From: a virus
Reading direction: 5' to 3' (one strand)
Length of the DNA stretch: 64,000 nt
IMG/VR virus record: IMGVR_UViG_3300028920_000037
Location: 1-64,000 of that record
Positions 8,424 through 59,611 of the stretch are shown here, in pieces. The first letter of the stretch is position 1, and the number at the start of each line of letters is the position of its first letter. Under the pieces are notes generated by a model. The model had not been told where the DNA came from. It did not search any database and was given only the letters and a program-made list of their open reading frames with translations. A program made the position numbers and the translations under genes.

Positions 8424-8452
8424 TTGTCATTCAACTCTTGAAGTGGTATAAT
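8424..8452 (+). promoter_or_regulatory. Sigma70-type promoter (leaderless) for the downstream endonuclease
   Basis: TTGTCA-N17-TATAAT with TGn extension; ATG 7 nt downstream. Confidence 0.75.
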
Positions 8453-8459
8453 ACAAACC

Positions 8460-9395
8460 ATGCAAGAGGAAACACTTTGTCGCGAGTGTGGACAGGAATT
8501 CGATACATCTGAACAGGTTCGTCGTCACTTAAGAAAACACAAGATGTCCTATAAAGATTACGTGTTGAAGTGGAAGTACGATAACATCAAACCAATTTGC
8601 AAGTGTGGTTGCGGCCAAGAGACGCTTTGGAACATAGCGTTGAAGGATTTTGCTGTTCACGTCCAAGGACATCACGCGTGGGGTTGTAAGAAGTCCGACG
8701 AAGAAAAGCAAAAAATTGGTCGCAAGAACAGCGAAAACATGAAGCGTTATTATGCTGAACATCATGATGAAGCAATGCGAAAAGTTGCGTTAATGAACGC
8801 GGCACATACACCAGAAGTTGAAGCAAAACGTATCAAAGCAACCCGTCGAGCCTACGAGACTATGTCGTTCGAAGACAAGCAGAAGTTTTCAGACAACACA
8901 AAAAAGCTCTGGAGAGAGTCTCGAGAACTCATGGATGCGGCACGTGAAAAAGCTGCTATAACGTTCAAAGAACGTGCTGCAAACGGTGAATATGACCTTG
9001 AAAGTCGTAACAGAAAGATTTCAAAAGCGATAACTCAACTGTACATCGACGGTGGACAAGCATGGGGCACGGGTCACTATACGTCTACAAAAACAGGAAA
9101 GACGATTTATCATCGTTCGTCTTGGGAGCTTCAATATGCTCAGCTGTTGGATGAAGATCCTGATGTACTAACATGGGAGTTTGAATGGGAAGGCATCCCA
9201 TATGAAATTGATGGTGTAATTCATCATTACGTTCCTGATTTTCACGTTGTGATGAATGATAAGTCTCACCTCTTTGTTGAGGTCAAGCCCCAGGCGCTTG
9301 TTGAAACTGATGTAAATGCGGCAAAACGCAATGCAGCACTAAGGGTATGTGAACACCGAGGGTGGAAGTACGTTTCATGGGCTCCTGTTGTATAA
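8460..9395 (+). CDS. Free-standing endonuclease: C2H2 Zn finger + CKCGCG module + TnsA-N-like PD-(D/E)xK domain
   Basis: CRECG..HLRKH, CKCGCG, RSSWE, YVPDF..VEVK; AT-richer than neighbours. Confidence 0.75.
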   Translation: MQEETLCRECGQEFDTSEQVRRHLRKHKMSYKDYVLKWKYDNIKPICKCGCGQETLWNIALKDFAVHVQGHHAWGCKKSDEEKQKIGRKNSENMKRYYAEHHDEAMRKVALMNAAHTPEVEAKRIKATRRAYETMSFEDKQKFSDNTKKLWRESRELMDAAREKAAITFKERAANGEYDLESRNRKISKAITQLYIDGGQAWGTGHYTSTKTGKTIYHRSSWELQYAQLLDEDPDVLTWEFEWEGIPYEIDGVIHHYVPDFHVVMNDKSHLFVEVKPQALVETDVNAAKRNAALRVCEHRGWKYVSWAPVV

Positions 9396-9403
9396 TCCAT
9401 CAC

Positions 9404-9895
9404 ATGTCAAACGTCACGCAGGAAGACAAAGAAAGAAGCAAGCTACTTCAATTGCAGCATGTAATACTCGTCAGGGATTTGATGAACGAAGCCGTGATGG
9501 TCCTGCTTCGCAGAGCCGCGCTTCACGATAAGTCGAAGCTCGAGGAACCTGAGTTGTCCATATTTGCAGAATACGCCGGTCGTCTCAAGGGGCTTACATA
9601 CATGAGCGACGAGTACAGGCAGTGCCTCAAAGAGATGGCACCAGCGCTTGAACACCACTATGCCGCGAACCGACATCATCCTCAACACTTTCCAAACGGG
9701 ATCGATGATATGAACTTGTTTGATCTACTTGAGATGTTCATCGACTGGTACGCATCTACGAAAAGACATGACGATGGAGATATCAACGACAGCATTGACA
9801 AGAACAAGACACGGTTTGAGCTAAGCGACCAGCTTGAACGCATCCTGCGCAACACAATTGTAGAATTCGATCCAAGCGTTGAAGGAGATAGTTAG
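9404..9895 (+). CDS. HD-like metal-binding protein (DUF5662-like)
   Basis: HDKSK, HHYAANRHHPQHF, EMFIDW motifs; ATG 9404 is 7 nt after TATAAT. Confidence 0.65.
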   Translation: MSNVTQEDKERSKLLQLQHVILVRDLMNEAVMVLLRRAALHDKSKLEEPELSIFAEYAGRLKGLTYMSDEYRQCLKEMAPALEHHYAANRHHPQHFPNGIDDMNLFDLLEMFIDWYASTKRHDDGDINDSIDKNKTRFELSDQLERILRNTIVEFDPSVEGDS

Positions 9896-9929
9896 ACAAG
9901 GGTTCCATGTTCACGGGTGAAGACAAGAT

Positions 9930-10625: not shown

Positions 10626-10982
10626 CGAGAACATTCGACAGATCGTTAGATAATTCTAAAGGTCCCATAAAGGGGACAATGGGCAAGGGTACACGAATTA
10701 TTTTGAGCCTTCTCGTGCCTTCTTGAGATGGCTTGTGTCGTTCGTTTGATACAACAAACGTACGCGGTGTAAGGTTTCTGTCTAAGACATACTGTTATGA
10801 TCTTTCATCGAGCCAGATCGGGACACTCAGAAGGGTCATCAACAAACACTTCAATTGTTGAACATCGGTCTGCTGTGGGATATATTTTGAATGTTTGTAG
10901 TCACACTGCTGCGATGTTGGCTTGAGGTACATCTGCAGAAGAGAATGTTTACATCGCACGAGATGTTTATGAAGTTCAACAA

Positions 10983-11591: not shown

Positions 11592-11597
11592 TAGTTA
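11592..11597 (+). promoter_or_regulatory. Putative late promoter motif TAGTTA upstream of tmRNA
   Basis: Recurrent motif 12 nt before the tmRNA 5' end. Confidence 0.55.
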
Positions 11598-11609: not shown

Positions 11610-11965
11610 GGGGCCGACTGGCTTCGACGTGGGAAGAGAAGGTAGGAACGATCACGTAGGGTTTCTGGGTACCCTTAACTGCTCAGGCGTAAACAACTGC
11701 GAACGATAACGCATTCGCTGACGTACCGCGAGCAATCGCTGCGTAAGCCGTCTCAGTGAATACGGCCTTTCGGTATCACTGAGGCGTCAATCCCAGAAAG
11801 GAAACCGGCGCGGTAAGGCTCATAATCCGCACGGTAAAATTTTGAGCTAGGATTGTTGCCTGCTGAATCGCAACAAACCCGCCGCAGGGTCAAGCGGCTA
11901 AGCGTGTGAACAAGGTTCTATTGGACTTTTTGCGGATTTGGGTTCGACTCCCAACGGTCCCGCCA
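11610..11965 (+). ncRNA. ssrA: tmRNA (one-piece, ~356 nt)
   Basis: 5' GGGGCCGACTGGCTTCGAC; PK1-like GGGT/ACCC + CTGGG/CTCAG; tag ORF; T-arm TTGGG-TTCGACT-CCCAA; acceptor 3' strand CGGTCCC-G-CCA. Confidence 0.95.
11699..11746 (+). other. tmRNA tag reading frame ANDNAFADVPRAIAA*
   Basis: Resume context AAACAACT|GCG AAC GAT AAC ... GCA ATC GCT GCG TAA. Confidence 0.9.
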
Positions 11966-12311: not shown

Positions 12312-12315
12312 GGAT

Positions 12316-12537: not shown

Positions 12538-13154
12538 CGCCCAGCGGCGTACGTAAACCACGAACGCTTGACCTTTGCAAGCGTCGCGATGACCATACGT
12601 TTGTCAACGCCACTGTTGAGCATCTTCCTAGCAAACGGAGTGATGCGGTCGTTGAACGCGACCTTGAATGGTCGACGTGTCTTCTTTGCGTTTAGATAAA
12701 CGTCACTGACGAATGCTTCTATCTCGTTGGGATCTGTGAGGTACCGTAGCATCTCGTTGGGATCGCCCGAAAGGGCATTGTCAGGATCGTAACCAGGTTC
12801 TGCGTCACCCCTCTTTAGTTGGAGAGAGTGTTCGTATTCGTGCCGTAACACGCTCCTGAGCTTGTGATACGTCTGTTCGTAGTGATCGGGTCCAAACGTT
12901 GGGCCCAACGATACGTCCAACGTCACGCAGTCCTCGTCCGTCATGGCGTTAAACCTGATGGGATCGCGTTGTCGATCGTCGAATCCAACCTTCGTCTGAA
13001 CCTCCCAGTCGTCCAACTCGTCTACGTTGTTCACGGGGGTTCCATCGAAGTTCTTGATATGATCAAATACGATTGCAACGGCAATGTTTGCCTTGCGCTC
13101 TGCGTACGACTCTGCAACGAGCACCCTTACATATCGCTCTAATAGCGACGACAT
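12513..13154 (-). CDS. Putative zincin-like metalloprotein (HExxH)
   Basis: RHEYEH..Q and downstream PNEIEAF; N-terminus LLERYVRVLVAE. Confidence 0.6.
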   Translation of the reverse strand: MSSLLERYVRVLVAESYAERKANIAVAIVFDHIKNFDGTPVNNVDELDDWEVQTKVGFDDRQRDPIRFNAMTDEDCVTLDVSLGPTFGPDHYEQTYHKLRSVLRHEYEHSLQLKRGDAEPGYDPDNALSGDPNEMLRYLTDPNEIEAFVSDVYLNAKKTRRPFKVAFNDRITPFARKMLNSGVDKRMVIATLAKVKRSWFTYAAGRYPAAMIA

Positions 13155-13242
13155 GCATTTACATATGCACTCTCGCGCAACGACAATGTCCCTGGACGGA
13201 ATGAATGTTGTGTTGGCTATTTAATCGCCAAGGAGCGCCAAG

Positions 13243-17671: not shown

Positions 17672-19669
17672 ATGGCGGGACGTACGTTTATCTCTCAACC
17701 AGAGCAGATCTTTGCTACCGAAGAGTATCTTGACTCTCTTGCAGCGGGCTCAGGACTTGAGACTGGATCATTAACTCTTGAATATGACCTGAATGCGCTG
17801 CGTTCACAGGTCAAGAGGATCATGTGGACTGGCCTCTCAGGAAGCTGGTACGACGACATCACACCTACTTCGGGACCGCAGCGTGGTCTTAACCTCATGA
17901 GTTCGGACCTTTACGACTTCGAGCAGCAGAGGATCATTGTTCGTACACAGAAGATCATCTCTGGCGTCAATGTTCCTGCTTCGCAGAACTGGGCGTCTCT
18001 ATCGATCACCGGTTCGACGGCGCCTACGAATTTCATTGCAGTCGGTGTGACGACCCAAACGGGCTCAGTTGCAGCGGAGCTGGTGACGGGTTCCTACGAT
18101 GCATGGTCGAGCGTTGTTGTCGATGGTACAACTGCAATCTCTCCGAAGAACCTTGTCCTTGTCCGAAACGCAGCAAACGGCGAGATCATCCAGGATACTG
18201 CTAACGACAATAGGGACGTTTACGGGTTGATGCAGGTCGAGTTCGGGGCGACAGACGGAACGAACTACGACGATCTTGATCAGCGTGCTCAGATTTCGTT
18301 CGTCATTGAGGTCTCTGGAACGTTGACGGCATCTTCTGTCGCCGCGATTGAAAACAAGACTATCAACTACTCGTATCCGACAAGGGTTGCGTTGAGCGAG
18401 CTACCAGAAGACGCGATGCTCTCGAACCACGTCTTCTTGGATGTTCCTGTTGATGCGCTGAACCTTTCTGGCTACGCTCAACTGACAGATATCACCCTTG
18501 ATAGGGCGATTGATAACCAGGGCGCGACTCCAGTCACGCAGGACACGGACATCAACATTCAGATTGCCTCTGGATCAGCATGGAGGTACTACGACGAGGC
18601 AGGCACAGGCCTGTACATGGAAGTCGAGTCAGACTACCTCGGTCAGGGTTCTGCCGTTAGAGTTACAACTGACAACCTCATCTATTCTGGCGTCAATTCT
18701 GCACAGTTCCATCAGGGCCTGCAGGTCTATGATGACGAGCAACCAAACAAGATCATCTACATCAATACCGATCCTGGTGAGATCGGTTCGTCAGAGGACC
18801 TACACGTTGTCTCTGGAGATGGCTACGACCTGACGTTGTCAGGTGGGTTGAGCCTGCGTTTCATCGATTCTGGTTCGCTTGAATCAACATACAATGCAAA
18901 TGGAATCCTCTTCTCGTCGGGTACGTCAGAGTGGAACGACTTTGCAACATACTTCAGCGTTGATGAAACGATCCTTGGCGCATTCGTGACACTGTCGGGT
19001 GCGATCGATTCTCTCTCGTCATCGCTCAACGTGACATCACTTCAGGACGCGATTGATGAACAGGGAGCGACGCCAGTCGTCCTTGGAAACGACGTCTTTA
19101 TCAATGTAGGTGACCAGGTCTGGCAGTTCACTGACGATGGAAACAACGTCCTGCTGGTGTCAACGGCGTCTGTTGCCGTCAACTCTGACAACATCGCTTT
19201 GCTTTCGAATGGAAACCTTGAGTTTCTTGACTCTGGTTCATTAGAGAGCGCGTTTAGTGGAAGTACGATTCTCTTCTCGTCGGGAACGACCGAGTGGAAC
19301 GATTTTCACTCGTACTTTGGACCCGAGGCGACGATCCTGAACGCGTTTACATCGATCTCAGCATCGTTATCGGCATCGAGCGGTGGCAGAACAAGGACGA
19401 ACGGTGGAACGACACCTCCGCAGATTCCTGCAGGTACGAATATTGTTTATCCAACAAACATAGACGTCCAGTTCCCAGACCTTTCGGGTTACGACTTTAT
19501 CAATGACATCAACATCTATCTCAATGGTGTGCTCCTCTATCCGGCGCTCACGTCAGGCGAGGGCGACGTCTATCCAGGCGCCAGCCTTGCGAACGGAGAA
19601 CTGAGGTTTGAACAGAAGCTTCGCTCTGGTTCAATCATCACGGTTGAGACGTTTGGTCCGATCGCATAA
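17672..19669 (+). CDS. Putative virion fibre/structural protein with internal duplication
   Basis: 665 aa; AIDxQGATPV and DSGSLES..ILFSSGT.EWNDF each occur twice; C-terminal YLNGVLL domain. Confidence 0.65.
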   Translation: MAGRTFISQPEQIFATEEYLDSLAAGSGLETGSLTLEYDLNALRSQVKRIMWTGLSGSWYDDITPTSGPQRGLNLMSSDLYDFEQQRIIVRTQKIISGVNVPASQNWASLSITGSTAPTNFIAVGVTTQTGSVAAELVTGSYDAWSSVVVDGTTAISPKNLVLVRNAANGEIIQDTANDNRDVYGLMQVEFGATDGTNYDDLDQRAQISFVIEVSGTLTASSVAAIENKTINYSYPTRVALSELPEDAMLSNHVFLDVPVDALNLSGYAQLTDITLDRAIDNQGATPVTQDTDINIQIASGSAWRYYDEAGTGLYMEVESDYLGQGSAVRVTTDNLIYSGVNSAQFHQGLQVYDDEQPNKIIYINTDPGEIGSSEDLHVVSGDGYDLTLSGGLSLRFIDSGSLESTYNANGILFSSGTSEWNDFATYFSVDETILGAFVTLSGAIDSLSSSLNVTSLQDAIDEQGATPVVLGNDVFINVGDQVWQFTDDGNNVLLVSTASVAVNSDNIALLSNGNLEFLDSGSLESAFSGSTILFSSGTTEWNDFHSYFGPEATILNAFTSISASLSASSGGRTRTNGGTTPPQIPAGTNIVYPTNIDVQFPDLSGYDFINDINIYLNGVLLYPALTSGEGDVYPGASLANGELRFEQKLRSGSIITVETFGPIA

Positions 19670-19692: not shown

Positions 19693-19730
19693 CTCGCCCA
19701 TGACGACTTACATTGTTCGTCATGGGCGAG
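19693..19730 (+). promoter_or_regulatory. Perfect 14-bp hairpin occluding ATG 19722
   Basis: CTCGCCCATGACGA / TCGTCATGGGCGAG; loop contains TACATT. Confidence 0.7.
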
Positions 19731-20447
19731 TATCATAATGGGCGCAAGACAGCCATCCACGCGGTTGGGTCGAAGGTTGAGCACAGGCTTGTTGAACAGG
19801 AAAAAGAGATTGTTCGGTTCACACACAAGATCGAAGCATTTGATGCCGCAGGCGAAAGGCTGAAGTCACTCATCATTCAGCTACGCCGCGAGATCACCAG
19901 TGGCAAGGTCCCTGTTAAGATGGGAGCTGAGGCTGAACGTTGGTTGAAGAAGGCTGCGGGCGACATCTATTCACTGCATGTGGAAACATCAGAATCAAAA
20001 CAGAAGGCGGAGGGTGCACATCTCGCGTTGAAGGAAACCGTCGAATCTCTCAAGAAGATGTTTGATGAGGAAGAACGCAAGAAGTCCGAGATAGAAGAGT
20101 GGGAGTCTCGTGACAACAAGACACTTGAGGATTTTAAGGAACGACCTATCGGTGCAGAGATCGAACCCGGCGCGCTGGTAATGGCACGAGAACATCGTAC
20201 GCAGATAGCGATCCAAGAGGAAGCGAAAGTTGCCGCCGCAAGAGAAAATACGTCGCAGCTTGAACTCGTTTATGATGAAAGAAAGAACGACGAGGGCACA
20301 CCAGAAAAGCCCGCACGGCGTAGGAGGAAGCCAAAGGCCGATGTTCAAGAGAATCTTGAACCAAAACCTCGAAGGACCCGCCGCCGCAAGAAGGGTCAAG
20401 GAGAGCAGGCACAGGTGGAGCCCCCTGCTGCGTCGCTTGATACTTAA
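19722..20447 (+). CDS. Hypothetical coiled-coil protein with basic C-terminal tail
   Basis: ATG 19722; RRRRK clusters. Confidence 0.6.
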   Translation: MGEYHNGRKTAIHAVGSKVEHRLVEQEKEIVRFTHKIEAFDAAGERLKSLIIQLRREITSGKVPVKMGAEAERWLKKAAGDIYSLHVETSESKQKAEGAHLALKETVESLKKMFDEEERKKSEIEEWESRDNKTLEDFKERPIGAEIEPGALVMAREHRTQIAIQEEAKVAAARENTSQLELVYDERKNDEGTPEKPARRRRKPKADVQENLEPKPRRTRRRKKGQGEQAQVEPPAASLDT

Positions 20448-29837: not shown

Positions 29838-30506
29838 ATGGCTCGTCTTTTTTTGACACAGCGCGAAGTAGACTTCATTTCTGACATCACGAAGGAAGTC
29901 GTGAAGGATGTCGTGGGCCAGAAGATCTACTACTACCCAATTTCAGAAGAAAGGACGCAGGCACATCCTGTTTATGATGAAGCGATCCGAAAGATCTTCG
30001 ATCAGCCGATCGAGATCGAGGCGCTGATCGACAACTCGTTCGAGAAGGATACTGTCATCAACCAGTTCGGTATCGACAAGGACTACAAGATTGAGGTCTT
30101 CATCCACTACAGGGACATGATCGAACGCGGAATCCAGTGTAGCATCGGAGACTTCTTCACGTTCTCAGACGTCATCTTTGAGGTCACTGAGGTACGTGTC
30201 ATGCGAAACATCTACGGTCTAGCAGAACATCCAGAAGGTGTCAGACTCGTTGGTTCACCCGCACGTCAGGAGTCGATCGATATCTATATCAAGGGTCCAA
30301 CAGACATCGGATACTCGGACGATGATGCTGTTCAGAAGACGTTTGTGCAGCAGCGCGGTTACGAGTCGAACGAGCTCGGCGACACCGCCGACCAGCGAGC
30401 GCTTGTTGATAACGGCGTGCTTGATCCTCCGTTGACGGGACCGAAGCAGGTATCGGAGAAGGGTGACGTGAAGGGCAGGAACGCGTTTTACGGTGAAGAG
30501 GATTGA
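29838..30506 (+). CDS. Neck/head-closure protein (gp14-like)
   Basis: GQKIYYY, VYDEA..KIF, FGID, IGDFF; synteny after gp13-like. Confidence 0.7.
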   Translation: MARLFLTQREVDFISDITKEVVKDVVGQKIYYYPISEERTQAHPVYDEAIRKIFDQPIEIEALIDNSFEKDTVINQFGIDKDYKIEVFIHYRDMIERGIQCSIGDFFTFSDVIFEVTEVRVMRNIYGLAEHPEGVRLVGSPARQESIDIYIKGPTDIGYSDDDAVQKTFVQQRGYESNELGDTADQRALVDNGVLDPPLTGPKQVSEKGDVKGRNAFYGEED

Positions 30507-34933: not shown

Positions 34934-35128
34934 ATGTTCTACGTTTATGTTGACTATCGTGAGGATTCAGGCGAGCCCTTTTATGTTGGAAAATGTAAGA
35001 GAGCTCGCGTTGACGACTATGTTCGACGTAATCGTAAGTGGCATAATATTGCTGATTTTGCGGTACGTGGTTCAAAATCAAAATTTTTGTTTGAATGGGC
35101 AAAACGGCTTGGGGTTACTGGCGAATGA
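34934..35128 (+). pseudogene. Truncated GIY-YIG endonuclease remnant
   Basis: FYVYVDY...PFYVGK N-terminus only, 64 aa, AT-rich. Confidence 0.65.
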
Positions 35129-38200: not shown

Positions 38201-38222
38201 AGCAAACATTCTAAAATTGTTG

Positions 38223-38258
38223 GAAGGCGATGATTATGTCATCGCCTTCTTGTATTTT
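38223..38258 (+). terminator. Rho-independent terminator after sheath 2
   Basis: GAAGGCGATGA-ttatg-TCATCGCCTTC then TTGTATTTT. Confidence 0.8.
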
Positions 38259-38272
38259 AATATTATTGTGTT

Positions 38273-39199
38273 ATGTACGGTATCATTTATGTCATAACAA
38301 ATAACGTAAACGATAAAAAGTATGTTGGATTAACAACAAAAACGATTGAAGCTCGTTTCAAACAACACCAGCGAACTGCAAACAGAGGTAGCAAATATCC
38401 AATTCATTGTGCAATTCGCAAATATGGCATTGAAAATTTCACGTATGATGTCATACAAGAGTGCAGTACGTTTGATGAACTTAACGCAGCAGAAATCGAT
38501 TGGATAGCAAAGCTTTGCACAATCGAACAAGGTTATAACATCTGTGAAGGCGGAAGAGGTGTTCGAGGTACAGGAATTTGGGTCCATTCTGAAGATGCAA
38601 AAAGAAAAATTTCGATCGGAAATTCTGGAAAGGTACGTTCCCAAGAGACAAAGAAGAAGATCTCAGAATCAGTGAAACGAATAATGACAAAAGATCATAG
38701 GTTGAAGTGTACCTTAGGGTTGAGAACTCCAGAAGCGAGAAAAAAAATTGAAGAGAACAACTACGCCAAGCGAAGAAAGCCTGTGTACAGGTATAGTACG
38801 TTCGGTACTTACCTTGGTAGCTTTACGTGTTGTAGGGATGCAGGTAAAAGGTGTGAGGCAAATGCATCAAATATTCTTCAATGTTGTCATGGTAGAATTC
38901 CAACGGTACACGATAGTTTTTGGTCATTTGTTCCTTTAGATGACAACGATATAAAAAGACGTCAAGTATTTCTTGTTAAGTACAGGAAGCGCTGCGCAGT
39001 TGCTGCAATAAAGGATGATGTGGTCGTTGGCATCTTTACGTCTGCTAAGATTACTGCACGTTTTGGATTTTCACCACAGCAGGTAAAAAGGTCAATCAAG
39101 GGTTCCTGTAGGGATCATAAAGGCTACACGTGGAAGAAGGTCGCTAAATTAAGCGATAATGAACAGTTACAACTATTAGACGCAGTTTTTTGTGATTGA
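38273..39199 (+). CDS. GIY-YIG homing endonuclease with NUMOD3/NUMOD1-like motifs
   Basis: GIIYVITN..KKYVG..RFKQH; GYN; HSEDAKRKIS, SQETKKKIS; AT-rich. Confidence 0.9.
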   Translation: MYGIIYVITNNVNDKKYVGLTTKTIEARFKQHQRTANRGSKYPIHCAIRKYGIENFTYDVIQECSTFDELNAAEIDWIAKLCTIEQGYNICEGGRGVRGTGIWVHSEDAKRKISIGNSGKVRSQETKKKISESVKRIMTKDHRLKCTLGLRTPEARKKIEENNYAKRRKPVYRYSTFGTYLGSFTCCRDAGKRCEANASNILQCCHGRIPTVHDSFWSFVPLDDNDIKRRQVFLVKYRKRCAVAAIKDDVVVGIFTSAKITARFGFSPQQVKRSIKGSCRDHKGYTWKKVAKLSDNEQLQLLDAVFCD

Positions 39200-39313: not shown

Positions 39314-39670
39314 ATGAAGAAAGTCGTGAAGCTTGATGCAAAGCAGCTCGGGGCGTTGGTCACGGGTATCGTCAAAGAGGAACGCCAGAAGATCGCGTCG
39401 GTAAAGGGCGGCGTGATCCGGATGACAGAGGCCAACCTCCGTAGGATCGTCCGTGAGGAACTGACCGAGATGCTCGGTACGCAGCCTCATGGTGTTGAAT
39501 TCAAGTCGGGTCAAGGTCAGAAGGGTCCGCTTGCGGGTGCAATGGATGACGCAAAGGTCGATCAACTCGCAAGCAAGCTCTCTGGGTTTGACCTCTCAGA
39601 CGAGGAGATCGACGCGCTCGTCAGCAAGCTCAAGGCAGAGGCGAGGAAGCGTCGCGGTCGACGCATCTAA
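39314..39670 (+). CDS. Small late hypothetical protein
   Basis: TAGTTA at 39268; GAGG RBS; LRRIVREEL motif. Confidence 0.65.
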   Translation: MKKVVKLDAKQLGALVTGIVKEERQKIASVKGGVIRMTEANLRRIVREELTEMLGTQPHGVEFKSGQGQKGPLAGAMDDAKVDQLASKLSGFDLSDEEIDALVSKLKAEARKRRGRRI

Positions 39671-41334
39671 ACAGCAAGTGAATAGACGAGGTTTGAACAT
39701 CCCCAGATCTTAACAACACCTGCCTGTTCGGCTACCTGGGCCTCTGTGAGGCCCAGAGATTTATTTGCTCGGTACTTGAACCGGTCATATCGGTTAGTAA
39801 AATCAGTCCACCAGAAGCGAGGTGATGTACTCGAGACGTACTTGAATCCTGCTTGTTCGTAGCTTCTGTTCGTGCCACTAAGACGAGTATCAACGTACGT
39901 AATGATGTTAGACATTGCATTTTCACGCGCATAGCCAATCGCAACGCGTACAAGCCTGCTGAGTCCACCTGGTACAGATACAAACGTTTTTGTTGCTGAC
40001 CTTGCTATCTCCAACATACCAGCGTATTTTTTGTGAACAGGTTGCCTAAGAGAGATTGCACAGACAATTTGATCGTTGTATTTTAGGCCCCATGCAATCC
40101 TACACGCGACGTCACCATCAAGGTGATTTTCATTGAAGAATTTCTTTCTTTCGGCGCGAGGAAGTCTGACGACTGTACACTTCCTCGCGCCGATCTTCGT
40201 AGGGGTCTTGCCAAGGCGGTGCATGATTGTGCTTTCAACGATGCGCCTGTTGTTCATCCAATCATCTTGGAATACATGAAGCAAACGAATGTTTTTATCG
40301 ACACAGCTTTGCGTCTTGTTTGCGTGATAGATCTTGCTTTTAAACAATATCGAATGCCAGTAAAGTCCGTTGTATTCGATTGCAAACCCGTGCGAGGGAA
40401 CAAAAATATCGAGCTCTAGCTTGCCTGCGAACGTCTTTCTATCGTTTGTTATGACGTTCTGGCCGCCCACGACGCTTCGAACAAACTGGTCGATCTGGCC
40501 CTGGGTCGCGCTTCCGGCAGGAGTACAGTTCCAACACCTTCCATATTGGAGCTGTCGGAGCGATGATGTAAAGTTGGTTCCACAGGTCTTGCACTTGACC
40601 TCGATCACGCGAGATGCGTCATTGACGTATTCATCTAGGCCACCGACGACTTCGAGCGTATCATGGACCTCGATCCTACCGACGATCTCATCGTGTTGGA
40701 GGCGCTTGATACCATCAAGGTACTCTCTAAGGGACTTCTCATTTAGCTTCAACGAGACCCTTGCGGCCATGTCTGCAACACGTTCGTCTGTGTCCTTTGT
40801 AAGCCCCCTGGTCCAAGGGGCGCATTCTCCAGTCGTGTACTTCTGTTTCAACGTGTCAGCTGCTTCTGCAACGCGTTCGTCTGTCTCTTTTGTCAGGCCT
40901 TTGGACCAACACGTTAGCCTGCCTTCATCAAAGGCTGCCTTTCTTCCGATTGATGTTGCCTTGGCTCGAGATGCAACACGTTCGTCTGTCTCCTTAGTCA
41001 GGCCCTTTGCCCAACCTGTCCTACCGGTCAGGCTCGCCGAACGTTTTTGGGCGATCTTTTTGGCTTCTTCTTCTGAATATACGTCGTAGATTCGAGCGTT
41101 GTGTCCCTTAAGCAATCGAGCATATCCATGCCTCCAGTTCAACCATGCAGTCTGCGATCCACAACCACAGGCACACATGTTCGTCCTTGTGTCATCGAGC
41201 CTCAACCATTCGTCCTGTGGTACGATGCCGTGAACGTCTATGAGATGTTTTTCGAAGAATGTAATTCTCTTGGTTGAGAATCCACAGATGTGGCACTTCA
41301 CCGGTTCAAGAGACCTTCCTTTAACAGCACCCAT
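39667..41334 (-). CDS. Free-standing endonuclease (Zn finger + CACGCG + WxKGLTKETDERV repeats + Hef-like PD-(D/E)xK domain)
   Basis: ELDIFVP..AIEYNGLYWHS; LLHVFQDDW; KIGARKC; FFNENHLDG; KIWGCS. Confidence 0.8.
   Translation of the reverse strand: MGAVKGRSLEPVKCHICGFSTKRITFFEKHLIDVHGIVPQDEWLRLDDTRTNMCACGCGSQTAWLNWRHGYARLLKGHNARIYDVYSEEEAKKIAQKRSASLTGRTGWAKGLTKETDERVASRAKATSIGRKAAFDEGRLTCWSKGLTKETDERVAEAADTLKQKYTTGECAPWTRGLTKDTDERVADMAARVSLKLNEKSLREYLDGIKRLQHDEIVGRIEVHDTLEVVGGLDEYVNDASRVIEVKCKTCGTNFTSSLRQLQYGRCWNCTPAGSATQGQIDQFVRSVVGGQNVITNDRKTFAGKLELDIFVPSHGFAIEYNGLYWHSILFKSKIYHANKTQSCVDKNIRLLHVFQDDWMNNRRIVESTIMHRLGKTPTKIGARKCTVVRLPRAERKKFFNENHLDGDVACRIAWGLKYNDQIVCAISLRQPVHKKYAGMLEIARSATKTFVSVPGGLSRLVRVAIGYARENAMSNIITYVDTRLSGTNRSYEQAGFKYVSSTSPRFWWTDFTNRYDRFKYRANKSLGLTEAQVAEQAGVVKIWGCSNLVYSLAV
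40781..41013 (-). repeat. Three ~35-nt coding repeats (WxKGLTKETDERV)
   Basis: Copies at about 40781-40815, 40874-40908 and 40979-41013. Confidence 0.8.
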
Positions 41335-41458: not shown

Positions 41459-41950
41459 ATGCCAGCAGAGACACTTGATGTAACATCGATGCTCCCTAAC
41501 AAATTCGAGCCAAAGCGAAAAAACCGATGGGTTTTGATGGTCGAAGGTATTGACGCATACATCTGCAAGACCACTGCGCGCCCGACCTACGAGACCGAGG
41601 AGATCGAAGTCCCGTTTGTTAACTCGCGTAGGTACCTCGCAGGGCCAACCAAGTTTGCAACGATGACCGTGACGCTTCACGATCCAATCGCGCCTTCAGG
41701 CGCTCAGCAGGTCATGGAATGGATCAGGCTTCACTTTGAGTCGGTTTCAGGCCGTGCTGGCTATGCTGACTTCTACAAGAGGGACATCCAACTGAAGGTT
41801 CTGGATCCGATCGGTACTGTTGTGGAACTTTGGGATATCAAAGGCGCATTCATCACAAACGCGACATTCGGAGAACTGACGTACGAGGACGGAACTCTCA
41901 CGGAAATCTCACTTACGCTCAGGTACGATAACGCGGTTTTGCAATTTTAA
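41459..41950 (+). CDS. Tail tube protein (gp19-like)
   Basis: FEPKRKNRW, DPIAPSGAQQVMEW, YKRDI, W.IKGAF, LRYD. Confidence 0.9.
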   Translation: MPAETLDVTSMLPNKFEPKRKNRWVLMVEGIDAYICKTTARPTYETEEIEVPFVNSRRYLAGPTKFATMTVTLHDPIAPSGAQQVMEWIRLHFESVSGRAGYADFYKRDIQLKVLDPIGTVVELWDIKGAFITNATFGELTYEDGTLTEISLTLRYDNAVLQF

Positions 41951-42018
41951 TGAGAGTATAATTCTTATCAAAACCATACGTCAGTATATTTTCTGGTCCA
42001 TTGTGGTTATTTTACTGC

Positions 42019-42929
42019 ATGGACCAGAGTGATATCGACTGTCAGTACTGTGGGAAAGAGTTCAAATCATTGAACTCGTTGCGTATTCATACGAGTAAAC
42101 TTCACAAGAAGTCATCGGAGCAGGTCTATATCGACATGTTCTGCGATGGAAAACATCCAACATGCAAGTGTGGATGTGGTCAATCGACGAAGTTTTGGAC
42201 TTTACAACGTGGATTTGCTGATTTTGTTCGTGGCCATCAGTCTCGTGTCAAAAACAACTGGGGACACAACAAGGAAGCGCTCGAACGTTCGCAGCAGGCA
42301 CGCCGTGAGATGCATGATCGTGGTGAGATCAAAATCTGGAATCGTGGTAAAACAAAAGAAACAGATGATCGTATTGTGGCGTATGGAGAAAAGCTAAAGG
42401 AAACATTTAAGGTTGATGTTTGTGAACGACAAAAACGTTCACAACGAATGACAAAGAATCGCTTAACAAAGATCGTGCCAGATTTAAAGGGTAAAAATCA
42501 TCCTCAATGGAAAGGCGGTGTTTCCGCTCTTCAGCCTATCGTTCGTGCTCGTCTTCATTTGTCTTGGGTCTATCCGATCCTCAAGCGTGATCAGTTTACA
42601 TGTCAACGTTGTGGATCAACGAAGGAACTTTGCGTTCATCATTCTGGCGTAAGATTCCCTCGCCCGTGAAGTTCGCGACCCAATACGGTTTCCCTCTGGG
42701 CGGGTCCCTCCTTGAGATTGAGCCGATCGAGGGCGAGTCCACCCTGTTTCGGGTCGACATACGTGCGTTCAACTTTCTGCGCCTTCCTGCCGAGCAAGTT
42801 GAGAATCGCGCGAGAACCTATTGGTCAGGTGTCACTATTAGACATGATCCACTAAACATTGAAGTTCTTCTTGAAGGATCATTTGTGATTCGTTCGATTC
42901 AATATTTACAACATGGACCTCCTCATTGA
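42019..42929 (+). pseudogene. Disrupted HNH endonuclease (Zn finger + CKCGCG + HNH start; stop at 42669, remnant in another frame)
   Basis: HPQWKGG, ILKRDQFTCQRCG..LCVHH then stop; SGVT remnant at 42825 lacks CxxCH. Confidence 0.7.
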
Positions 42930-47800: not shown

Positions 47801-50250
47801 TCGTTGCAATGATTTCTCTTGTCACGACGATGCTCGTCGGTTCTACGCTCGCTGCAAACGCAGCAAAGGCCGTCAAGCCGACATACATGTTGAAGATGAG
47901 CCTCGTTTTGGTCGCCGTCGGCGCAGCACTCGCTGTCGGCGGTGTCATGCTTGCCAAGGGCGTCAAGCAGATGGTCAAGGAACTCGGCGGCGTTTCGATC
48001 GTTGAGATGGGTAAGGTCATGATCGGCCTCGCGGGATTCATGGCGTTGACTGTCGGCGTTGCTGCGGGTGCTGCACTGGTTGGTAAGATCGGAGATCCGA
48101 CGAGCATCGCGATCGGTGGCCTTGTCATCGGTGTATTGGGAGTCTTCATGGTCGGCCTTCTTGTGCTGATCGGTGGCGTCGTTGCAACAATGAAGAAGTG
48201 GGGCGTGTCTGCTCAGGCGATGCTCGCTGCAACGAAGGCGATGCAGGCACTTGCAATGACGATGCTCATAATGATACCTGTCGTGCTCGCTGCAACTGCG
48301 CTCGGTGCCGCGATCGTCGCGACAAGCGGCGTCCTGGCCGTCGCAATGGCTGCAGGGTTGCAGGTTATCGCTGCCGGTGTGGCATCGCTCGCTGCGATGG
48401 CAATGTCTATCACCAAGGACCTGAACAACATGAAGGAGGCACCTGGCCTCGAGCGCAAAGCGCAGGTGTTCACGTCGGTGATGGGCGCGATCAACAACAT
48501 GGTCAGCATCCTTGCAAAGATCATGAAGGAGATGTCACCAGGCCTGACCGACCTCGTCAATGTTTTGAGGGGCGGTGACATCGACTCGCGCATCAAGAGC
48601 ACGACCAAGTTTATTGAGATCCTTTTACCAGAGATTCGCAGCATCGTCAAGCAGGTCATGACGGTGATCAAGGACCTTTCGAGCGGTCCCGATACGATGC
48701 TGAAGGGTGCGGAAATCTTTGCAAACATCCTTCAGGCTCTCGGTACCTTTACTCAGGCACTGGTTCCTCCAAAGGAACTTATGGAGAAAAAGACCGTCAA
48801 GTACGGGATCCTTGCCAATGAGATATCAACTGTAACGTCCTCTGCGTCTAACTTCACGGAAAAGATTTCTGGGTCTGTGAAGGAATTCATGGGTCAGATC
48901 ATTGGATTCATCAAAGAGATCACGACGTTGCCGATCTCCGATGAGATGCTCCAGCAAGGAATTCCGGCGATCACAAACATCTTGAGGGCTACGGCCGGCC
49001 TGATGTCAGCGTTGGTCCCTGACGCGAATACACTTCAGCAGTTTAGAGAGACAAGAGAGGCGTCGTCTAAAATCGGTATCATGGTTGATGAACACAAGAA
49101 CATCACTAAGACGCTGAACGTCGGTGCGCTCAAGAACATGCTCGACAGTACAAAGGAGAACTTTAAGGAACTGATCAAGTTCCTTACGAACGCAAGCTTC
49201 ACAAAGTTCCTGAACGACGCTGCGAAAGTTGCAGACAACGAGACAAAGATCAAGTCACTGTCCGCGGTCGGAAACATCATGGGTGCCATCGCGTCTGTAA
49301 TTCAGTCGCTTGCGAAGGCTGGCAGGCAGCAGAGCGTCGGAAACATTGACGCGTCTGGTGAGGGAGCGAACGTAATCATCAGGTTCCCAAAGACTGAAGG
49401 TATCAATACAACATTGAAGGAACTTTCAAAGGATCAAGGTGGCATCGCAAAGATGTTCAACCTCATCAAGAAGCTGTCAAAGGGGCTCAGCGTTGACGAA
49501 AAGCTTCAAAGCGATCTTGAAGTTCTCGGAAAGATCTTTGCGTCGATAGGAGACATCTCGAAGTTTATGAGTACGGTCTCTGCGCTGTCAAAGGGCAAAA
49601 AGGTTGCAGGGGTTACAGAGGACGCACTTAAGAAGGTTGTTGCTCCGGTGAAGCTGCTGGGAAGCTTCATCGACCAGCTTGCCGGTTCAGGTAGCGCATC
49701 GATCTCAAAGATCATCGACAAGGTTAAGACCGTTTCAGTCGGCGGCGAAGGCAGCACCGCGGCAATCGAAAACATGGCAAAGATGACAGGTGTCATCAAA
49801 CAGGCGGACGAGATGCTAGGACAGGTCCAGAGGATCGCCGGAAGGTCATTCAAGAAGGACATCGTTGAAAAGGGGCTTGTACCTGCGCTTGAAGCTGTTG
49901 GTAAGATGGTCGAATCTGTCAATGAAATGAACAAGGCATTGAGCAGTGTTCAGGCCGGTAAGGCGAAGGTCGAGGTTGGCCTACGCAAGGTTGCAGGCGA
50001 GATGGGTGTCGGCGGAAAGGCAAACTATTCGATTCGTAACAACCCGATCAACATACACCTTGCGATCCAGGTTGAGATGCAGGCCGCTGAGCTCGAAAGG
50101 GTCATCGTGTTCAGGAAGGACAGCGTGATCAGGGACCAATTGAAGTGGGTACGTGGTTCGGAACTTCGTGAGGACAAGGGACCTTGGACACGCGATCAGG
50201 CAGACCTCGATGGACCTGGAAAGAACTACATCAGGCACACCGCGAATTGA
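44830..50250 (+). CDS. Tape measure protein
   Basis: 1806 aa, Ala/Gly/Leu-rich helical with hydrophobic segments; follows tube and chaperone. Confidence 0.88.
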   Translation: MAVDPKELREVAKAADAAADNIRSATEALSEQASVVASLTEAYKAFSSAEVTQQVVDLTSALRDLSPIADEVAKRTKSTSSSLRTMSKNVEGVDATVTTLTGRMKDLSSALLGLNKDAQDGMFDPKKIKDLNDDQSKMQKTLVSIHDTLKDMKDNVEGFGKGVIDSARSVKDLGNTQGMLNDMSDSILGTSDALKETKTSSEQTGSSLRGLETSLLAAAATGNTFTGALLGIATESKLGQRALKWLGNTASKPLTAGIGAAIGAVTGLTSGLMGIARATKTVGGFFANMIGWAFKLGAAIIAIPVRFLGGLVEMAASMNMGAAEYLRQIEEVRDKFGNFRVGQSQAIKEMQKSFAKTTETGLNAYRIYGYLHERLKMITELVEGLGATWGVFQDEFARDGFLQAKRIDEFRMGLGLSHEQLKSTLMMSKAMGKSAGGTLTDLTKHVKGYAKTLNISHKTLTRDIADALKDAGRFGGIAIQAIARASAYARALGHELKEIAGVLDAFETFDTAAEGAAKLAQSFGATVDAFKLVSAQSPDEMIQHLRDSFFAAGKSAENLTRQELKLLSQQTGLNEEVARSVFSMQNQGRSVDELKKKQEEQENAQVTQAKALRSLADDIKRLVKEMQPLKKSFVSMFIDGMKKGVMRSKEFLGLMFKIRRGLILTWREGFKLGRVIIGQVPALKKLFEGLHAFFDPSKYKNLAAKMRHILLDFFKGNGGVSDMLHKAQEAFTHFFNIQNPAAKKMIEGAKMIMKRVAAAIAEGITWVSQQLVVGLKYIAGLISGKNSGDLALAGTFGGQALGFLYDILKPVIDAVVDAAPLLLNALVDLIVVAGQRLWTEVKKDPVRGILITTAKYLATGLAIAIGTKMLMGMVAGAMTSLVVGGINKMITGPGSKAISSAGSSLASKSAKAASAMPKGGAALGHQTGGIIGGWVTAAKRARKVTIPGLVKLFLVIATIGAGLGAGVYLLAKGLKVALAELKPALQTPGDVVAMISLVTTMLVGSTLAANAAKAVKPTYMLKMSLVLVAVGAALAVGGVMLAKGVKQMVKELGGVSIVEMGKVMIGLAGFMALTVGVAAGAALVGKIGDPTSIAIGGLVIGVLGVFMVGLLVLIGGVVATMKKWGVSAQAMLAATKAMQALAMTMLIMIPVVLAATALGAAIVATSGVLAVAMAAGLQVIAAGVASLAAMAMSITKDLNNMKEAPGLERKAQVFTSVMGAINNMVSILAKIMKEMSPGLTDLVNVLRGGDIDSRIKSTTKFIEILLPEIRSIVKQVMTVIKDLSSGPDTMLKGAEIFANILQALGTFTQALVPPKELMEKKTVKYGILANEISTVTSSASNFTEKISGSVKEFMGQIIGFIKEITTLPISDEMLQQGIPAITNILRATAGLMSALVPDANTLQQFRETREASSKIGIMVDEHKNITKTLNVGALKNMLDSTKENFKELIKFLTNASFTKFLNDAAKVADNETKIKSLSAVGNIMGAIASVIQSLAKAGRQQSVGNIDASGEGANVIIRFPKTEGINTTLKELSKDQGGIAKMFNLIKKLSKGLSVDEKLQSDLEVLGKIFASIGDISKFMSTVSALSKGKKVAGVTEDALKKVVAPVKLLGSFIDQLAGSGSASISKIIDKVKTVSVGGEGSTAAIENMAKMTGVIKQADEMLGQVQRIAGRSFKKDIVEKGLVPALEAVGKMVESVNEMNKALSSVQAGKAKVEVGLRKVAGEMGVGGKANYSIRNNPINIHLAIQVEMQAAELERVIVFRKDSVIRDQLKWVRGSELREDKGPWTRDQADLDGPGKNYIRHTAN

Positions 50251-50262
50251 TATGATTAGGGC

Positions 50263-50556
50263 ATGTTTGATGAAGACGAACTCATCAAGAGGTTCAAGCA
50301 AAACAGGCTCTATAAGGATGCGATCTCACGGTTGACGGCCGATGAAGCAAGATACGTTGAGGAAAGCGTCGAGGCGTTTTATCGTACGATGATCAGGTCA
50401 CTCGCTCCGTTCGGAGCGCGTCTTGGTTCAGACCCAGAATTTCTCAAAGGCATGCAGGAGGAGCTCGATCGTCGCGCAGGTGTAGTTACTCAGAGAAAGA
50501 GTGACGAACCTGTGTCGATGACGTCCGAAAAGGACGGCAAGAAGAGAGATGCCTGA
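50263..50556 (+). CDS. Small hypothetical protein
   Basis: TATGAT 6 nt upstream, leaderless. Confidence 0.6.
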   Translation: MFDEDELIKRFKQNRLYKDAISRLTADEARYVEESVEAFYRTMIRSLAPFGARLGSDPEFLKGMQEELDRRAGVVTQRKSDEPVSMTSEKDGKKRDA

Positions 50557-57168: not shown

Positions 57169-57211
57169 TTTATCGCCTGTAGTGTAGATGTATGCAGTGT
57201 AAAATTCCACG

Positions 57212-58453
57212 GTGCACTATCTGATAGACTGTGATGTTCTAGGAACGCGAGAACACCTTGTTGTCGTAGGTGACAAAAACGGTAGCAAGGCTCGCTGGAT
57301 AAACTACGTACCAGAAGGTGTCTGGTACCTTTCGGGAAAGCTGAAGGACGATGGATGGTGTCTTGATACGTTGCTGCGCCTGAATCACATCAACATCGAC
57401 CTTCTACCGGACGAGAGGTACAAGAACGTCATCGAGACGGTGATGTCAGGATCGAATGTTTCGCCTCCTTGGTCAAAAGTGATGAAGCGTGGCCATCACA
57501 TAGACCACGTCAAAAAAATCGTTGACCAGATCAATGAGGCCATAAGCAGTCTTGATGAAAGTTATTACAGGGACACGTGGGTGCCTGAGACGGCAATATT
57601 CGATCGTCTAAACCCTGCCTACATTGATGAGGCGCTTTGGCGAGAATGGATGCTCCGTGAGGTTGGAAACAAGCATGTCATCAAGACGTTCAAGCCCACG
57701 GACGGCGTGGCGCGTCACGTTGAGTACAACAGGTTTGGAACACGCACTGGTCGCCTTACGGTCGCCCGCGGGCCGAACATACTGACGCTTCGCAAGGACG
57801 CGAGGAACATCGTCAAATCGCGTTATCCGTTTGGATCAGTCGCGATGTACGACTTTTCTGCGCTCGAGGTCAGGCTCGTACTGTACGAAGCAGGGTATAG
57901 GTGCGACGATGTTGACCTCTACGGATTCCTGAGGGACGAGCTCTACAAGGGAAAGGTCGAGAGGGACGCCATCAAGCAGGCAGTCATTTCGGAGCTCTAC
58001 GGACAGAACAAGTTTGCACTCGGCGACAACCTTGGGATAGGTGGAAAGGTTCTTGATAGGTTCGTGCGCAAGATCAAGACGTACTTTCAGTTTGATAACC
58101 TCAAAAAGAGGACGAAGGATGGTTACGTCTCTACGGGATACGTGACAAACAGGTATGGTCGTCATATCACAATCGATGAACCGCTAGATCACATCATTTT
58201 CAATTCATACGTCCAGTCAACCGGTGTTGATGTGACGCTTCTCGGTTTTGAAGAGCTATGCAAGCGGTTGCCAGAAGGATGTGTTCCTCTGTACCTTTTG
58301 CATGACGCGTTGCTCATAGACTGCCCCAGCTTTGATGCGCTTGAAAAGGTCATCTGGCTAAAGGTGCCCGGTTACGTGCAGCGATGGCCCTTGAAACTTG
58401 AACAAGTGTCCGTTAATGGAGTATGTTCGCAAGAAGAGGCACAAGATGACTAA
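57212..58453 (+). CDS. Compact family-A DNA polymerase (polymerase domain only)
   Basis: TRTGRL..PNI; motif A DFSALEVR; motif B R...K.......YG; VQSTG.D; motif C LHDA. Confidence 0.8.
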   Translation: MHYLIDCDVLGTREHLVVVGDKNGSKARWINYVPEGVWYLSGKLKDDGWCLDTLLRLNHINIDLLPDERYKNVIETVMSGSNVSPPWSKVMKRGHHIDHVKKIVDQINEAISSLDESYYRDTWVPETAIFDRLNPAYIDEALWREWMLREVGNKHVIKTFKPTDGVARHVEYNRFGTRTGRLTVARGPNILTLRKDARNIVKSRYPFGSVAMYDFSALEVRLVLYEAGYRCDDVDLYGFLRDELYKGKVERDAIKQAVISELYGQNKFALGDNLGIGGKVLDRFVRKIKTYFQFDNLKKRTKDGYVSTGYVTNRYGRHITIDEPLDHIIFNSYVQSTGVDVTLLGFEELCKRLPEGCVPLYLLHDALLIDCPSFDALEKVIWLKVPGYVQRWPLKLEQVSVNGVCSQEEAQDD

Positions 58454-59069
58454 AAAAATGCAAGAAATCACACCAGAAGAAATCAATGAGAACTTTGAAA
58501 AGTTCACTGGTTTTTTGCAGAAGCTTGAGGACACTCCCGATAGAAAGGGGGCAGCGCTTCAGATGTGTGATGAGCTCGGTGAACGCCTTGCCCTCTGTCC
58601 GGCATCAGGCAGGCTCGACTATCACAACTGCTTTCCAGGCGGACTTGTTGAGCATTCGAATCGTGTTCTCGGCAATGGGCTCAGGCTTCGCAAGCAGTTC
58701 TCGAGCGTAGAAATGGTTCCTACGTCATCATTGATCATTGGGTGCCTCTTCCATGATCTAGGCAAGGTGGGCGACCTCACAGACGACTACTATATCCCTC
58801 AAGATAGTGATTGGCATCGTGATAAGCTTGGTGAGTTTTACAAGGTCAATACCGAGATGAAATATATGACCGTTCCTCACAGGAGCGTGTTCCTATGTCA
58901 ACACTTCGGGCTGCGTCTTACACATGATGAGATGGTCGCGATTCTGATCCATGATGGACAGTACGTCGATGATAATAAATCGTACAAGATGAAAGAACCC
59001 GCCCTTGCTGACATCGTTCATTTGGCTGACTACCTTGCTGGCAAGGAAGAGAAAGGTATGCTTGTATGA
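58446..59069 (+). CDS. HD-domain phosphohydrolase (YhaM-like)
   Basis: PAS...YH...GGLVEHS, FHDLGK, HDG, HLAD. Confidence 0.85.
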   Translation: MTKKMQEITPEEINENFEKFTGFLQKLEDTPDRKGAALQMCDELGERLALCPASGRLDYHNCFPGGLVEHSNRVLGNGLRLRKQFSSVEMVPTSSLIIGCLFHDLGKVGDLTDDYYIPQDSDWHRDKLGEFYKVNTEMKYMTVPHRSVFLCQHFGLRLTHDEMVAILIHDGQYVDDNKSYKMKEPALADIVHLADYLAGKEEKGMLV

Positions 59070-59311
59070 TCTACGAAAATGTTGTTGTTGAGCTCGATGG
59101 AACGCGAAACACGCAGGATATCATCGATGAGTTTACGTCTCATGGAGCGACCGTCTCACCCGATGAGACAGATCCTGACGTGTTGTATGTCTCAGGCGTT
59201 CCTCATGACCTTGTTGATTATGTTGAAGGGATCGCGGAATACGCCCCCTTTGACGGAGACACAAAGGATATGCTTGACACTTTTGAAGCGATTCAAGACG
59301 AAGAATTGTAG
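59066..59311 (+). CDS. Small acidic hypothetical protein
   Basis: ATGA coupling; 81 aa. Confidence 0.55.
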   Translation: MIYENVVVELDGTRNTQDIIDEFTSHGATVSPDETDPDVLYVSGVPHDLVDYVEGIAEYAPFDGDTKDMLDTFEAIQDEEL

Positions 59312-59362
59312 TTCAAACAGTACAAAATATCGCCACAAGCTTCATGGTGCGATATTTATACC

Positions 59363-59611
59363 GTGCGCTATGGCATTCTGAGAGAGTACGTTCGGATGCT
59401 CGTGGAGTCTGATGTAGACGATCCACGTGTGCCCGATCAGCCGTTTGATCCGGACGACATCGATAGCCAAGGCGACGTTGATTCTGAGGAAGACAAAGAG
59501 AAGCAGCTTAGAGGCAAAGAAGAGGTAGACGAGTTTTGTGCTGTCGGTGGTGCCGGAGGCCCACAGATCATGGGACACGTTGGAGCGGAAAACGGACGAC
59601 GCAGGAAATAG
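59363..59611 (+). CDS. Small late hypothetical protein
   Basis: TATTTA at 59353, leaderless GTG; ILREYVRMLVE. Confidence 0.6.
   Translation: MRYGILREYVRMLVESDVDDPRVPDQPFDPDDIDSQGDVDSEEDKEKQLRGKEEVDEFCAVGGAGGPQIMGHVGAENGRRRK

Follow-up and report, generated by a model that had tools for sequence, protein, structure and literature searches.

Start-burying hairpins with −10-like loops at a few genes of an uncultivated T4-like phage

In bacteriophage T4, the genes e (lysozyme), soc and 49 and those for the intron endonucleases I-TevI/II/III contain their late promoter within a hairpin, which on read-through RNA of early or middle origin conceals the site where translation begins (PMC3014915, PMC2988022). 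Free-standing endonuclease genes, namely segB of T4 and mobE of Aeromonas phage Aeh1, carry hairpins that sequester the ribosome binding site (Gibb and Edgell 2007, 2009, as cited in PMC2988022), and the promoter-early stem-loop (PeSL) cassettes of phages RB49 and phi1 are repeated, sequence-similar elements that end in a Shine-Dalgarno sequence and act as terminators (PMC2839356). Here we describe an analysis of the first 64 kb (hereafter the window) of a 140,495-bp virus record, 51% G+C, deposited in IMG/VR as IMGVR_UViG_3300028920_000037, in which two strong hairpins bury the start codons of an HNH endonuclease gene (42019) and of an orphan gene (19722), genes being named by the position of their start codon. 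We propose, with a probability of about 0.6, that the device of T4 e, soc, I-TevI, segB and mobE is used here in a Shine-Dalgarno-free form. It would act at few genes, for the most part free-standing endonuclease genes immediately following a strongly expressed gene from which no terminator separates them. This T4-type switch is best supported at the HNH gene 42019, is also seen at an endonuclease gene outside the window (69830) and is probable at the orphan gene 19722.

In the proposed mechanism, read-through RNA from the upstream gene would fold a hairpin of 14–15 bp that holds the AUG and the next codons in its 3′ arm, and ribosomes would be unable to start on this RNA while the hairpin is folded. 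A transcript initiated from the −10-like element of the loop would lack the 5′ arm and present its AUG free at the 5′ end. The analysis establishes the hairpins, how rare they are, their RNA-level conservation and covariation, and the −10-like loops; the transcript start sites, the leaderless translation and the silence of the read-through RNA are predictions of this model. For 42019, the read-through RNA likely originates from the tail-tube gene, which ends 68 nt before the HNH gene. The features concerned are the following.

41459..41950, + strand: gp19-like tail-tube gene directly upstream of 42019 (Pfam Phage_T4_gp19; 84% identity to the tube of the related contig L005)
41992..42028, + strand: RNA hairpin with ATG 42019-42021 wholly in its 3′ arm (fold, opening cost, covariation)
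42008..42013, + strand: loop hexamer TATTTT, −10-like, 5 nt ahead of ATG 42019 (sequence motif)
42019..42669, + strand: HNH endonuclease gene with an N-terminal zinc finger and no Shine-Dalgarno sequence (Pfam zf-C2H2, alignment with a 260-aa homologue)
19693..19730, + strand: perfect 14-bp hairpin, 19693-19706 with 19717-19730, 10-nt loop 19707-19716 (fold)
19709..19714, + strand: −10-like TACATT in the loop, 7 nt before ATG 19722 (motif only, single sequence)
19722..20447, + strand: 241-aa charged, helical orphan open reading frame (ORF) in a tail-fibre gene cluster (sequence)

As in T4 e, soc, 49 and I-TevI, a stable hairpin covers the start region and a promoter-like element lies inside it, such that the gene's own transcript would lack the 5′ arm; the guarded gene would again sit in a foreign transcription unit, and it encodes an endonuclease at 42019 and 69830. 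Unlike the T4 device, 42019 and 19722 have no Shine-Dalgarno sequence, the AUG and first codons themselves form the 3′ arm, and the −10 lies only 5–7 nt before the AUG, so that the freed transcript would be leaderless. Moreover, the loop of close relatives resembles a host-type extended −10 rather than TATAAATA. With a host-type −10 in the loop, timing could be reversed, placing an endonuclease promoter inside a late operon, although we infer the timing classes of these genes from motifs only. To the extent that segB and mobE are described in PMC2988022, they share with the present loci a free-standing HNH or other endonuclease gene that lies directly behind or within an essential gene and is guarded by a hairpin, and the 69830 family sits, like mobE, at ribonucleotide reductase genes. 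Going by the same description, the loci reported here differ in their endonuclease families and hosts, in hiding the start codon and not the ribosome binding site, and in the retention of the device across dozens of uncultivated T4-like phages. PeSL cassettes likewise combine a host-type promoter with a stem-loop that can overlap the −10, located between genes and insulating an inserted ORF, but the hairpins at 42019 and 19722 share no sequence, lack a T-run and a Shine-Dalgarno sequence, and include the AUG; neither is a repeated, similar element with a Shine-Dalgarno end and a terminating stem-loop.

A preliminary description of the window had listed eight genes at which a promoter-like hexamer would accompany a hairpin with the start codon in its stem, and all eight sequence strings were found where it had placed them. 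We folded the region from −50 to +25 around every start and compared the folds with dinucleotide shuffles, using 200 shuffles for each of the eight named sites. We also calculated the opening cost, defined as the free energy required to free the start codon and the codon after it from pairing, and the extra opening cost, which is the value in a long RNA minus the value in an RNA beginning at the start codon, with 1500 internal ATG or GTG codons as the null (median 1.95, 95th percentile 6.3, 99th percentile 8.7 and maximum 13.2 kcal/mol). This measure was used instead of a perfect-stem scan (loop up to 14 nt; about 159 + strand hairpins of −15 kcal/mol or stronger) because that scan missed the bulged hairpin at 42019. 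The extra opening cost was above every control only at 42019 (15.8 kcal/mol) and 19722 (15.7 kcal/mol), and the chance of at least two starts beyond all controls among the 41 promoter-adjacent starts is 4e-4. Among the eight sites, a stable helix over the translation start on read-through RNA was therefore confined to these two, neither of which was equalled by any of its 200 shuffles; the other six stems are chance pairings.

The hairpin at 42019 consists of a 10-bp lower stem (41992-42001 with 42019-42028), a bulged T42002, a 5-bp upper stem that includes two G·U pairs (42003-42007 with 42014-42018) and the loop 42008-42013. Its best fold has a free energy of −28.1 kcal/mol (z −5.2), and the opening cost is 16.3 kcal/mol in the long RNA versus 0.5 kcal/mol in the gene's own RNA. 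For 19722, where ATG 19722-19724 lies in the 3′ arm, the corresponding values are z −6.7 and 19.3 versus 3.6 kcal/mol. We looked for a Shine-Dalgarno sequence before both start codons and found none, and a consensus promoter scan returned only chance-level matches at the two hairpins.

To place the 42019 hairpin in an evolutionary context, we collected HNH-family loci from a metagenome scan, of which the best 80 of 202 were used. One IMG/VR contig, L005, has the same layout as the window, with a tube 84% and an endonuclease 49% identical, and carries a hairpin of different sequence (z −5.0). A gp19-like gene (38–86% identical) lies directly upstream in about 77/84 loci of the family; such long-kept synteny of tube and HNH genes is unusual for a selfish gene and may reflect old vertical descent or a domesticated role. 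The extra opening cost exceeds 6.3 kcal/mol in 20/81 loci and 12 kcal/mol in 13/81. Since a first hairpin classification without an energy cut-off was lax, calling 52% of controls, energy thresholds were then applied, and a hairpin of −12 kcal/mol or stronger was found in 43/71 distinct HNH loci (61%), compared with 4.6% of 568 control ATGs drawn from the same loci. The start codon is held in 26 of these 43 hairpins, and the other 17 end within 14 nt before it. Loops of the family are 88% A+T, versus 54% in 495 generic hairpins of the same loci, and TAnnnT occurs in or around the loop of 30/43 family hairpins (70%) as against 39/495 generic ones (8%; Fisher 3e-20). Within the family, the group closest to the window has the AUG in the stem and no Shine-Dalgarno sequence, and its loops show either TGnTATATT or TGnTACAAT at a distance of 7 nt from the ATG, of which the TATTTT of the window is a weaker version.

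Covariation was assessed in ten sequences of the AUG-in-stem form, all located behind an 82–86% identical tube gene; the alignment was anchored on the ATG, as MAFFT mis-aligned the tube-HNH spacer for the window and L005. Fourteen pairs are formed in 99.2% of cells, the single unpaired cell being due to the upper stem of the window, which is one column out of register. Compensatory changes were found in 7/14 pairs, including codons 2–4 of the HNH gene, and some 5′-arm changes track amino-acid changes in codons 3–4 (MDQ, MDL, MDV). None of 500 shuffles reached the observed level, and slid registers pair in only 24–45% of cells. The 42019 hairpin is a conserved RNA structure. At two of its stem positions, 4 and 6 of the 9 distinct sequences have U·G or G·U, read on the sense strand; such pairs would be mismatched in DNA, as they would on the opposite strand, and they therefore point to a sense-strand RNA structure and not to a DNA operator. 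Inverted repeats that act in DNA, bound as operators either by a dimeric repressor or by the endonuclease, would suit the overlap with a promoter-like element, the perfect DNA palindrome formed by the 19722 repeat and the documented autorepression by I-TevI, which binds over its own late promoter (PMC2988022). Besides the G·U pairs, this explanation is made improbable by arm sequences that are wholly different between families while pairing is kept, and by arms of 14–15 bp, which are long for an operator half-site.

Several observations weigh against the switch. The loop motif of the window at 42019 is poor (TATTTT or TTATTT) and has no −35, and the HNH ORF ends after 'VHHSGVRF', lacking about 50 C-terminal HNH-motif residues relative to the 260-aa homologue. 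The remainder of the gene was sought in other frames by tblastn and not found, and, as judged from its sequence, the gene is probably in decay, with its hairpin retained; given the poor loop motif and the truncation, the switch in the window may itself be a relic. The case of 19722 is a single sequence whose promoter match is weak. If it has no Shine-Dalgarno sequence, an internal AUG should be poorly read anyway, which leaves a strong lock unexplained; the lock would make sense if the host can initiate at open AUGs that lack a Shine-Dalgarno sequence. In addition, about 17 family loci have a hairpin that stops short of the ATG, and without the energy cut-off a T-run follows the stem in 13/29 loci with such hairpins, which look like the terminator of the tube gene.

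These T-runs bear equally on the possibility that both strong hairpins mainly serve the upstream gene, as terminator or 3′-end stabiliser of the tail-tube mRNA and of that of gene 17672-19669, the start-codon overlap then being a by-product of tight packing, much as in the PeSL cassettes of RB49 and phi1. Both hairpins lie 23–42 nt past the upstream stop codon, other strong T-run-free hairpins follow genes in this phage (for example, 61243-61280), and termination of transcription is a property of those PeSL stem-loops that overlap −10 boxes (PMC2839356). We nevertheless consider a mainly upstream role unlikely. T-runs and terminator calls are lacking at both window hairpins: a GC-rich stem with an immediate T-run was found at neither 42019 nor 19722, where the tails read TATCATAA and GTGATATC, and a + strand terminator scan between the upstream stop and the hairpin returned no terminator-like site at either gene. 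The 3′ arm runs 10 nt into the gene, and where substitutions there change amino acids the 5′ arm follows them, which a mere terminator would not need; the loops are, moreover, specifically −10-like. Hiding a start and serving the upstream mRNA do not exclude each other, and the two roles may coexist. An SD-like (Shine-Dalgarno-like) word occurs in the 3′ arm of 14/29 hairpins ending before the ATG and of 13/33 holding it (no energy cut-off), and some loci of the former kind combine GGAGG-like words in the 3′ arm, a TATAAATA-like loop and then a T-run, a form that is the T4 pattern itself and possibly doubles as terminator of the tube gene.

The hairpin of the orphan gene 19722 begins 23 nt past the stop of the upstream gene 17672-19669. 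Its −35 zone is weak (GTAAAC at 17 nt), and ATG 19722 is, apart from a TTG in the loop, the sole plausible start, with the next in-frame ATG lying 66 codons on. The product has no Pfam or PHROG match and, among 5.8 billion proteins, matches only itself; IMG/VR was likewise searched for relatives of this protein and of its upstream neighbour, and none were found. Because of this lack of relatives, nothing beyond rarity can be shown for the 19722 hairpin. A bolder version of the proposal, which we put forward only tentatively, is that an uncultivated T4-like lineage rebuilt the transcript-origin switch for leaderless mRNAs, with the start codon locked, a host-type loop promoter freeing a 5′-terminal AUG, and at least one non-endonuclease gene (19722) under its control. 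If this were true, hosts could start at open internal AUGs without a Shine-Dalgarno sequence, explaining why the lock is kept.

The expectation that endonucleases would profit from such a switch was borne out by a second family. At 69830 (genome 69830-70837), a Vsr/DUF559-type endonuclease gene lies directly behind the ribonucleotide reductase large-subunit gene, and its GTG start is favoured by homologue N-termini; the protein database start for this gene is 8 codons too far upstream. The extra opening cost was marginal at 69830 itself (7.3 kcal/mol), and at three homologous loci (L177-L179), also behind reductase genes, it was 13.8, 10.1 and −0.1 kcal/mol, the AUG of the last lying inside the loop of a 15-bp hairpin. 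Peptide-pattern scans of IMG/VR for relatives of 8460 and 69830 returned none, and the relatives of both were obtained through the protein database. A start at 29838, also with a marginal extra opening cost (8.5 kcal/mol), was considered as a further hairpin candidate and rejected, as 52 orthologous starts were null-like, with a median of 1.8 kcal/mol.

The gene 8460 (region 8378-9395), one of the eight named sites, encodes a TnsA-like endonuclease that shares an N-terminal zinc-finger module with the HNH gene product of 42019. It lies directly behind the gp23 gene, as it does in 7/8 relatives (L089-L096). In about 7/8 relatives, the promoter is kept with its −35, its −10 and the 17 nt between them, as is the distance of 6–7 nt to the ATG; L090, with a 21-nt leader, and L094, with a poor −10, deviate. 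Its proposed stem is not kept in the eight relatives (extra opening cost −1.5 to 4.5 kcal/mol), and comparison with relatives, which the preliminary description had called for, thus upheld the 42019 stem and not this one. The 8460 family and the GIY-YIG gene 38273 have a true terminator and then a promoter, instead of a start-burying hairpin; in the 8460 family the promoter is of host type and the start near-leaderless. The latter gene (SegE-like; region 38222-39199) follows a terminator, with TATTAT placed 6 nt ahead of the ATG. Behind the first sheath gene, a short ORF (34934-35128; beginning MFYVYVDYRE...PFYVGKC) resembles a GIY-YIG remnant and has no Pfam match.

For the six named sites at which the start-burying hairpin fell to chance level, we list the elements together with the shuffle z (shuffles as good out of 200 in brackets), the extra opening cost and its p.

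8424..8468, + strand: TTGTCA-17 nt-TATAAT promoter, then 7 nt, then ATG 8460 of the TnsA-like endonuclease gene (sequence)
8435-8440 with 8463-8468, plus TGGT with ACCA, + strand: proposed weak 8460 stem; z −1.8 (7/200), 4.7 kcal/mol, p 0.14
9370..9414, + strand: TATAAT 9391-9396, 7 nt, ATG 9404 (DUF5662 gene); z +1.4 (187/200), −0.1 kcal/mol; best fold without the proposed stem
50229..50272, + strand: TATGAT 50251-50256, 6 nt, ATG 50263, with a 9-bp stem and 26-nt loop; chance-level, z −1.1 (30/200), 3.4 kcal/mol, p 0.27
57186..57222, + strand: TAAAAT 57200-57205, 6 nt, GTG 57212 (family A polymerase fragment), with an interrupted stem; chance-level, z −1.6 (13/200), 3.2 kcal/mol, p 0.29
59332..59374, + strand: TATTTA 59353-59358, 4 nt, GTG 59363, with an interrupted stem; chance-level, z −0.7 (54/200), 1.1 kcal/mol, p 0.63
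13145..13176, − strand: TATGTA, 5 nt, ATG 13154, with a small stem; chance-level, z −0.3 (72/200), 1.7 kcal/mol, p 0.54

Against the null, the extra-opening-cost p of these six sites ranges from 0.14 to 0.88. The two sites that had been described as late-motif cases, 59363 and 13154, fail every test, and the TATGTA before 13154 matches neither motif class. As a transcript-origin filter resembling that of T4, the idea is well supported at 42019, where the hairpin is conserved and covarying and has a −10-like loop, plausible at 19722, and unsupported elsewhere among the named sites.

The preliminary description had gone further, proposing that a promoter-in-loop, start-in-stem cassette may recur across the whole window, in both directions, and filter translation according to transcript origin at eight or more genes, early and late. 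In its favour, promoter-adjacent starts are less open in long RNA than those led by a Shine-Dalgarno sequence (SD-led; median 3.6 versus 2.6 kcal/mol, p 0.04), and 4/41 lie above the 97th percentile of the null, compared with 1.1 expected (p 0.024). These values equal those of random internal ATGs, so the lesser openness is as would follow from an absence of selection for openness. The median extra opening cost of the 41 promoter-adjacent starts is 2.0 kcal/mol versus 1.95 for the null (p 0.42), and with only two sites beyond the controls the hairpin cassette is not a property of the class, which is no more occluded than random internal ATGs. Folding against shuffles and SD-led genes singled out the same two outliers and left the class only marginally lower (mean z −0.75 versus −0.13, p 0.07; p 0.15 without the two outliers). 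With six of eight named stems at chance level and no conservation of those at 8460 and 29838, a genome-wide cassette is largely refuted by the shuffle and null tests, and we regard it as very improbable; the promoter-adjacent layout by itself brings no special hairpin.

In long RNA, opening costs less at SD-led starts than at random internal ATGs (2.6 versus 3.6 kcal/mol, p 3e-4), which does not hold for promoter-adjacent starts. The latter look, in long RNA, like sequence under no selection either way, and this fits the idea that they are not read from long RNA.

What did stand beyond chance in the earlier proposal is the promoter-like hexamer next to the start codon. Taking 4691 internal start-like codons as the reference for every in-frame start candidate near the 5′ end of an ORF, we found TAnnnT 6 nt before candidate starts in 16 cases (2.7 expected) and at 7 nt in 10 cases (2.6 expected), giving 26 versus 5.3 for both spacings. 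TAnTTA was seen 27 times at 3–30 nt before starts, with about 1.5 expected, and many TAnnnT-type starts have TTGAAC, GTGTAG or TTGTCA (−35) exactly 17 nt upstream. Judged on sequence, genes with the arrangement of leaderless mRNA genes, a −10 about 6–7 nt before the start and no Shine-Dalgarno sequence, are present, and leaderless-type starts are real and common in this phage, since the TAnnnT spacing is enriched and the layout is kept in about 7/8 relatives of 8460. Genes whose start codon lies 6–7 nt past the −10 would probably give leaderless or near-leaderless mRNAs.

These results correct an over-general claim, in that a promoter beside the start codon brings no built-in hairpin filter in this phage, and they would extend the textbook mechanism of T4 to many uncultivated relatives and to a leaderless-compatible form. 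The dozens of covarying hairpins constitute a natural test set for how selfish endonuclease genes stay silent in highly expressed late operons. Widespread leaderless expression in a T4-superfamily phage is likewise supported, and gene calling is affected, as start codons without a Shine-Dalgarno sequence are easily mis-set, as at 69830.

We called 172 genes with a codon-usage model, and an ordinary Shine-Dalgarno sequence is present at about 74 of them. The genome encodes a Gp23-family major capsid protein (6463-8355; Pfam, E 2e-73), the gp19-like tail tube and a T4 baseplate protein, on account of which we take the phage to be a distant member of the T4 superfamily; the tail-sheath match is weak (E 7e-4, below Pfam's cut-off). 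GenBank phages were searched for near-identical or close relatives, and none were found. The sole match in an Rfam scan was a tmRNA, and neither hairpin was recognised. This phage-encoded tmRNA (11610-11965; Rfam, 94 bits) carries the tag ANDNAFADVPRAIAA.

Further hairpins were noted. An 11-bp GC-rich hairpin without a T-run (61243-61280) lies 10 nt past the stop of gene 60315-61232; the in-frame ATG of the next ORF, without a Shine-Dalgarno sequence, follows it directly at 61281, and the called TTG start at 61242 is probably wrong. Three very long hairpins, at 40151-40193, 1337-1381 and genome 79549-79584, have perfect stems of 11–15 bp and longer best folds of −26 to −32 kcal/mol; two are within coding regions, one of them in the minus-strand gene 39667-41334, and one of the three sits 21 nt before the start at 79606. 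Finally, a single ORF at genome 109331-110569 combines a weak TnsA-like/DUF1064-like nuclease segment with a dCMP/cytidine deaminase domain (E 1e-16) and may represent an endonuclease fused to, or run into, a deaminase gene.

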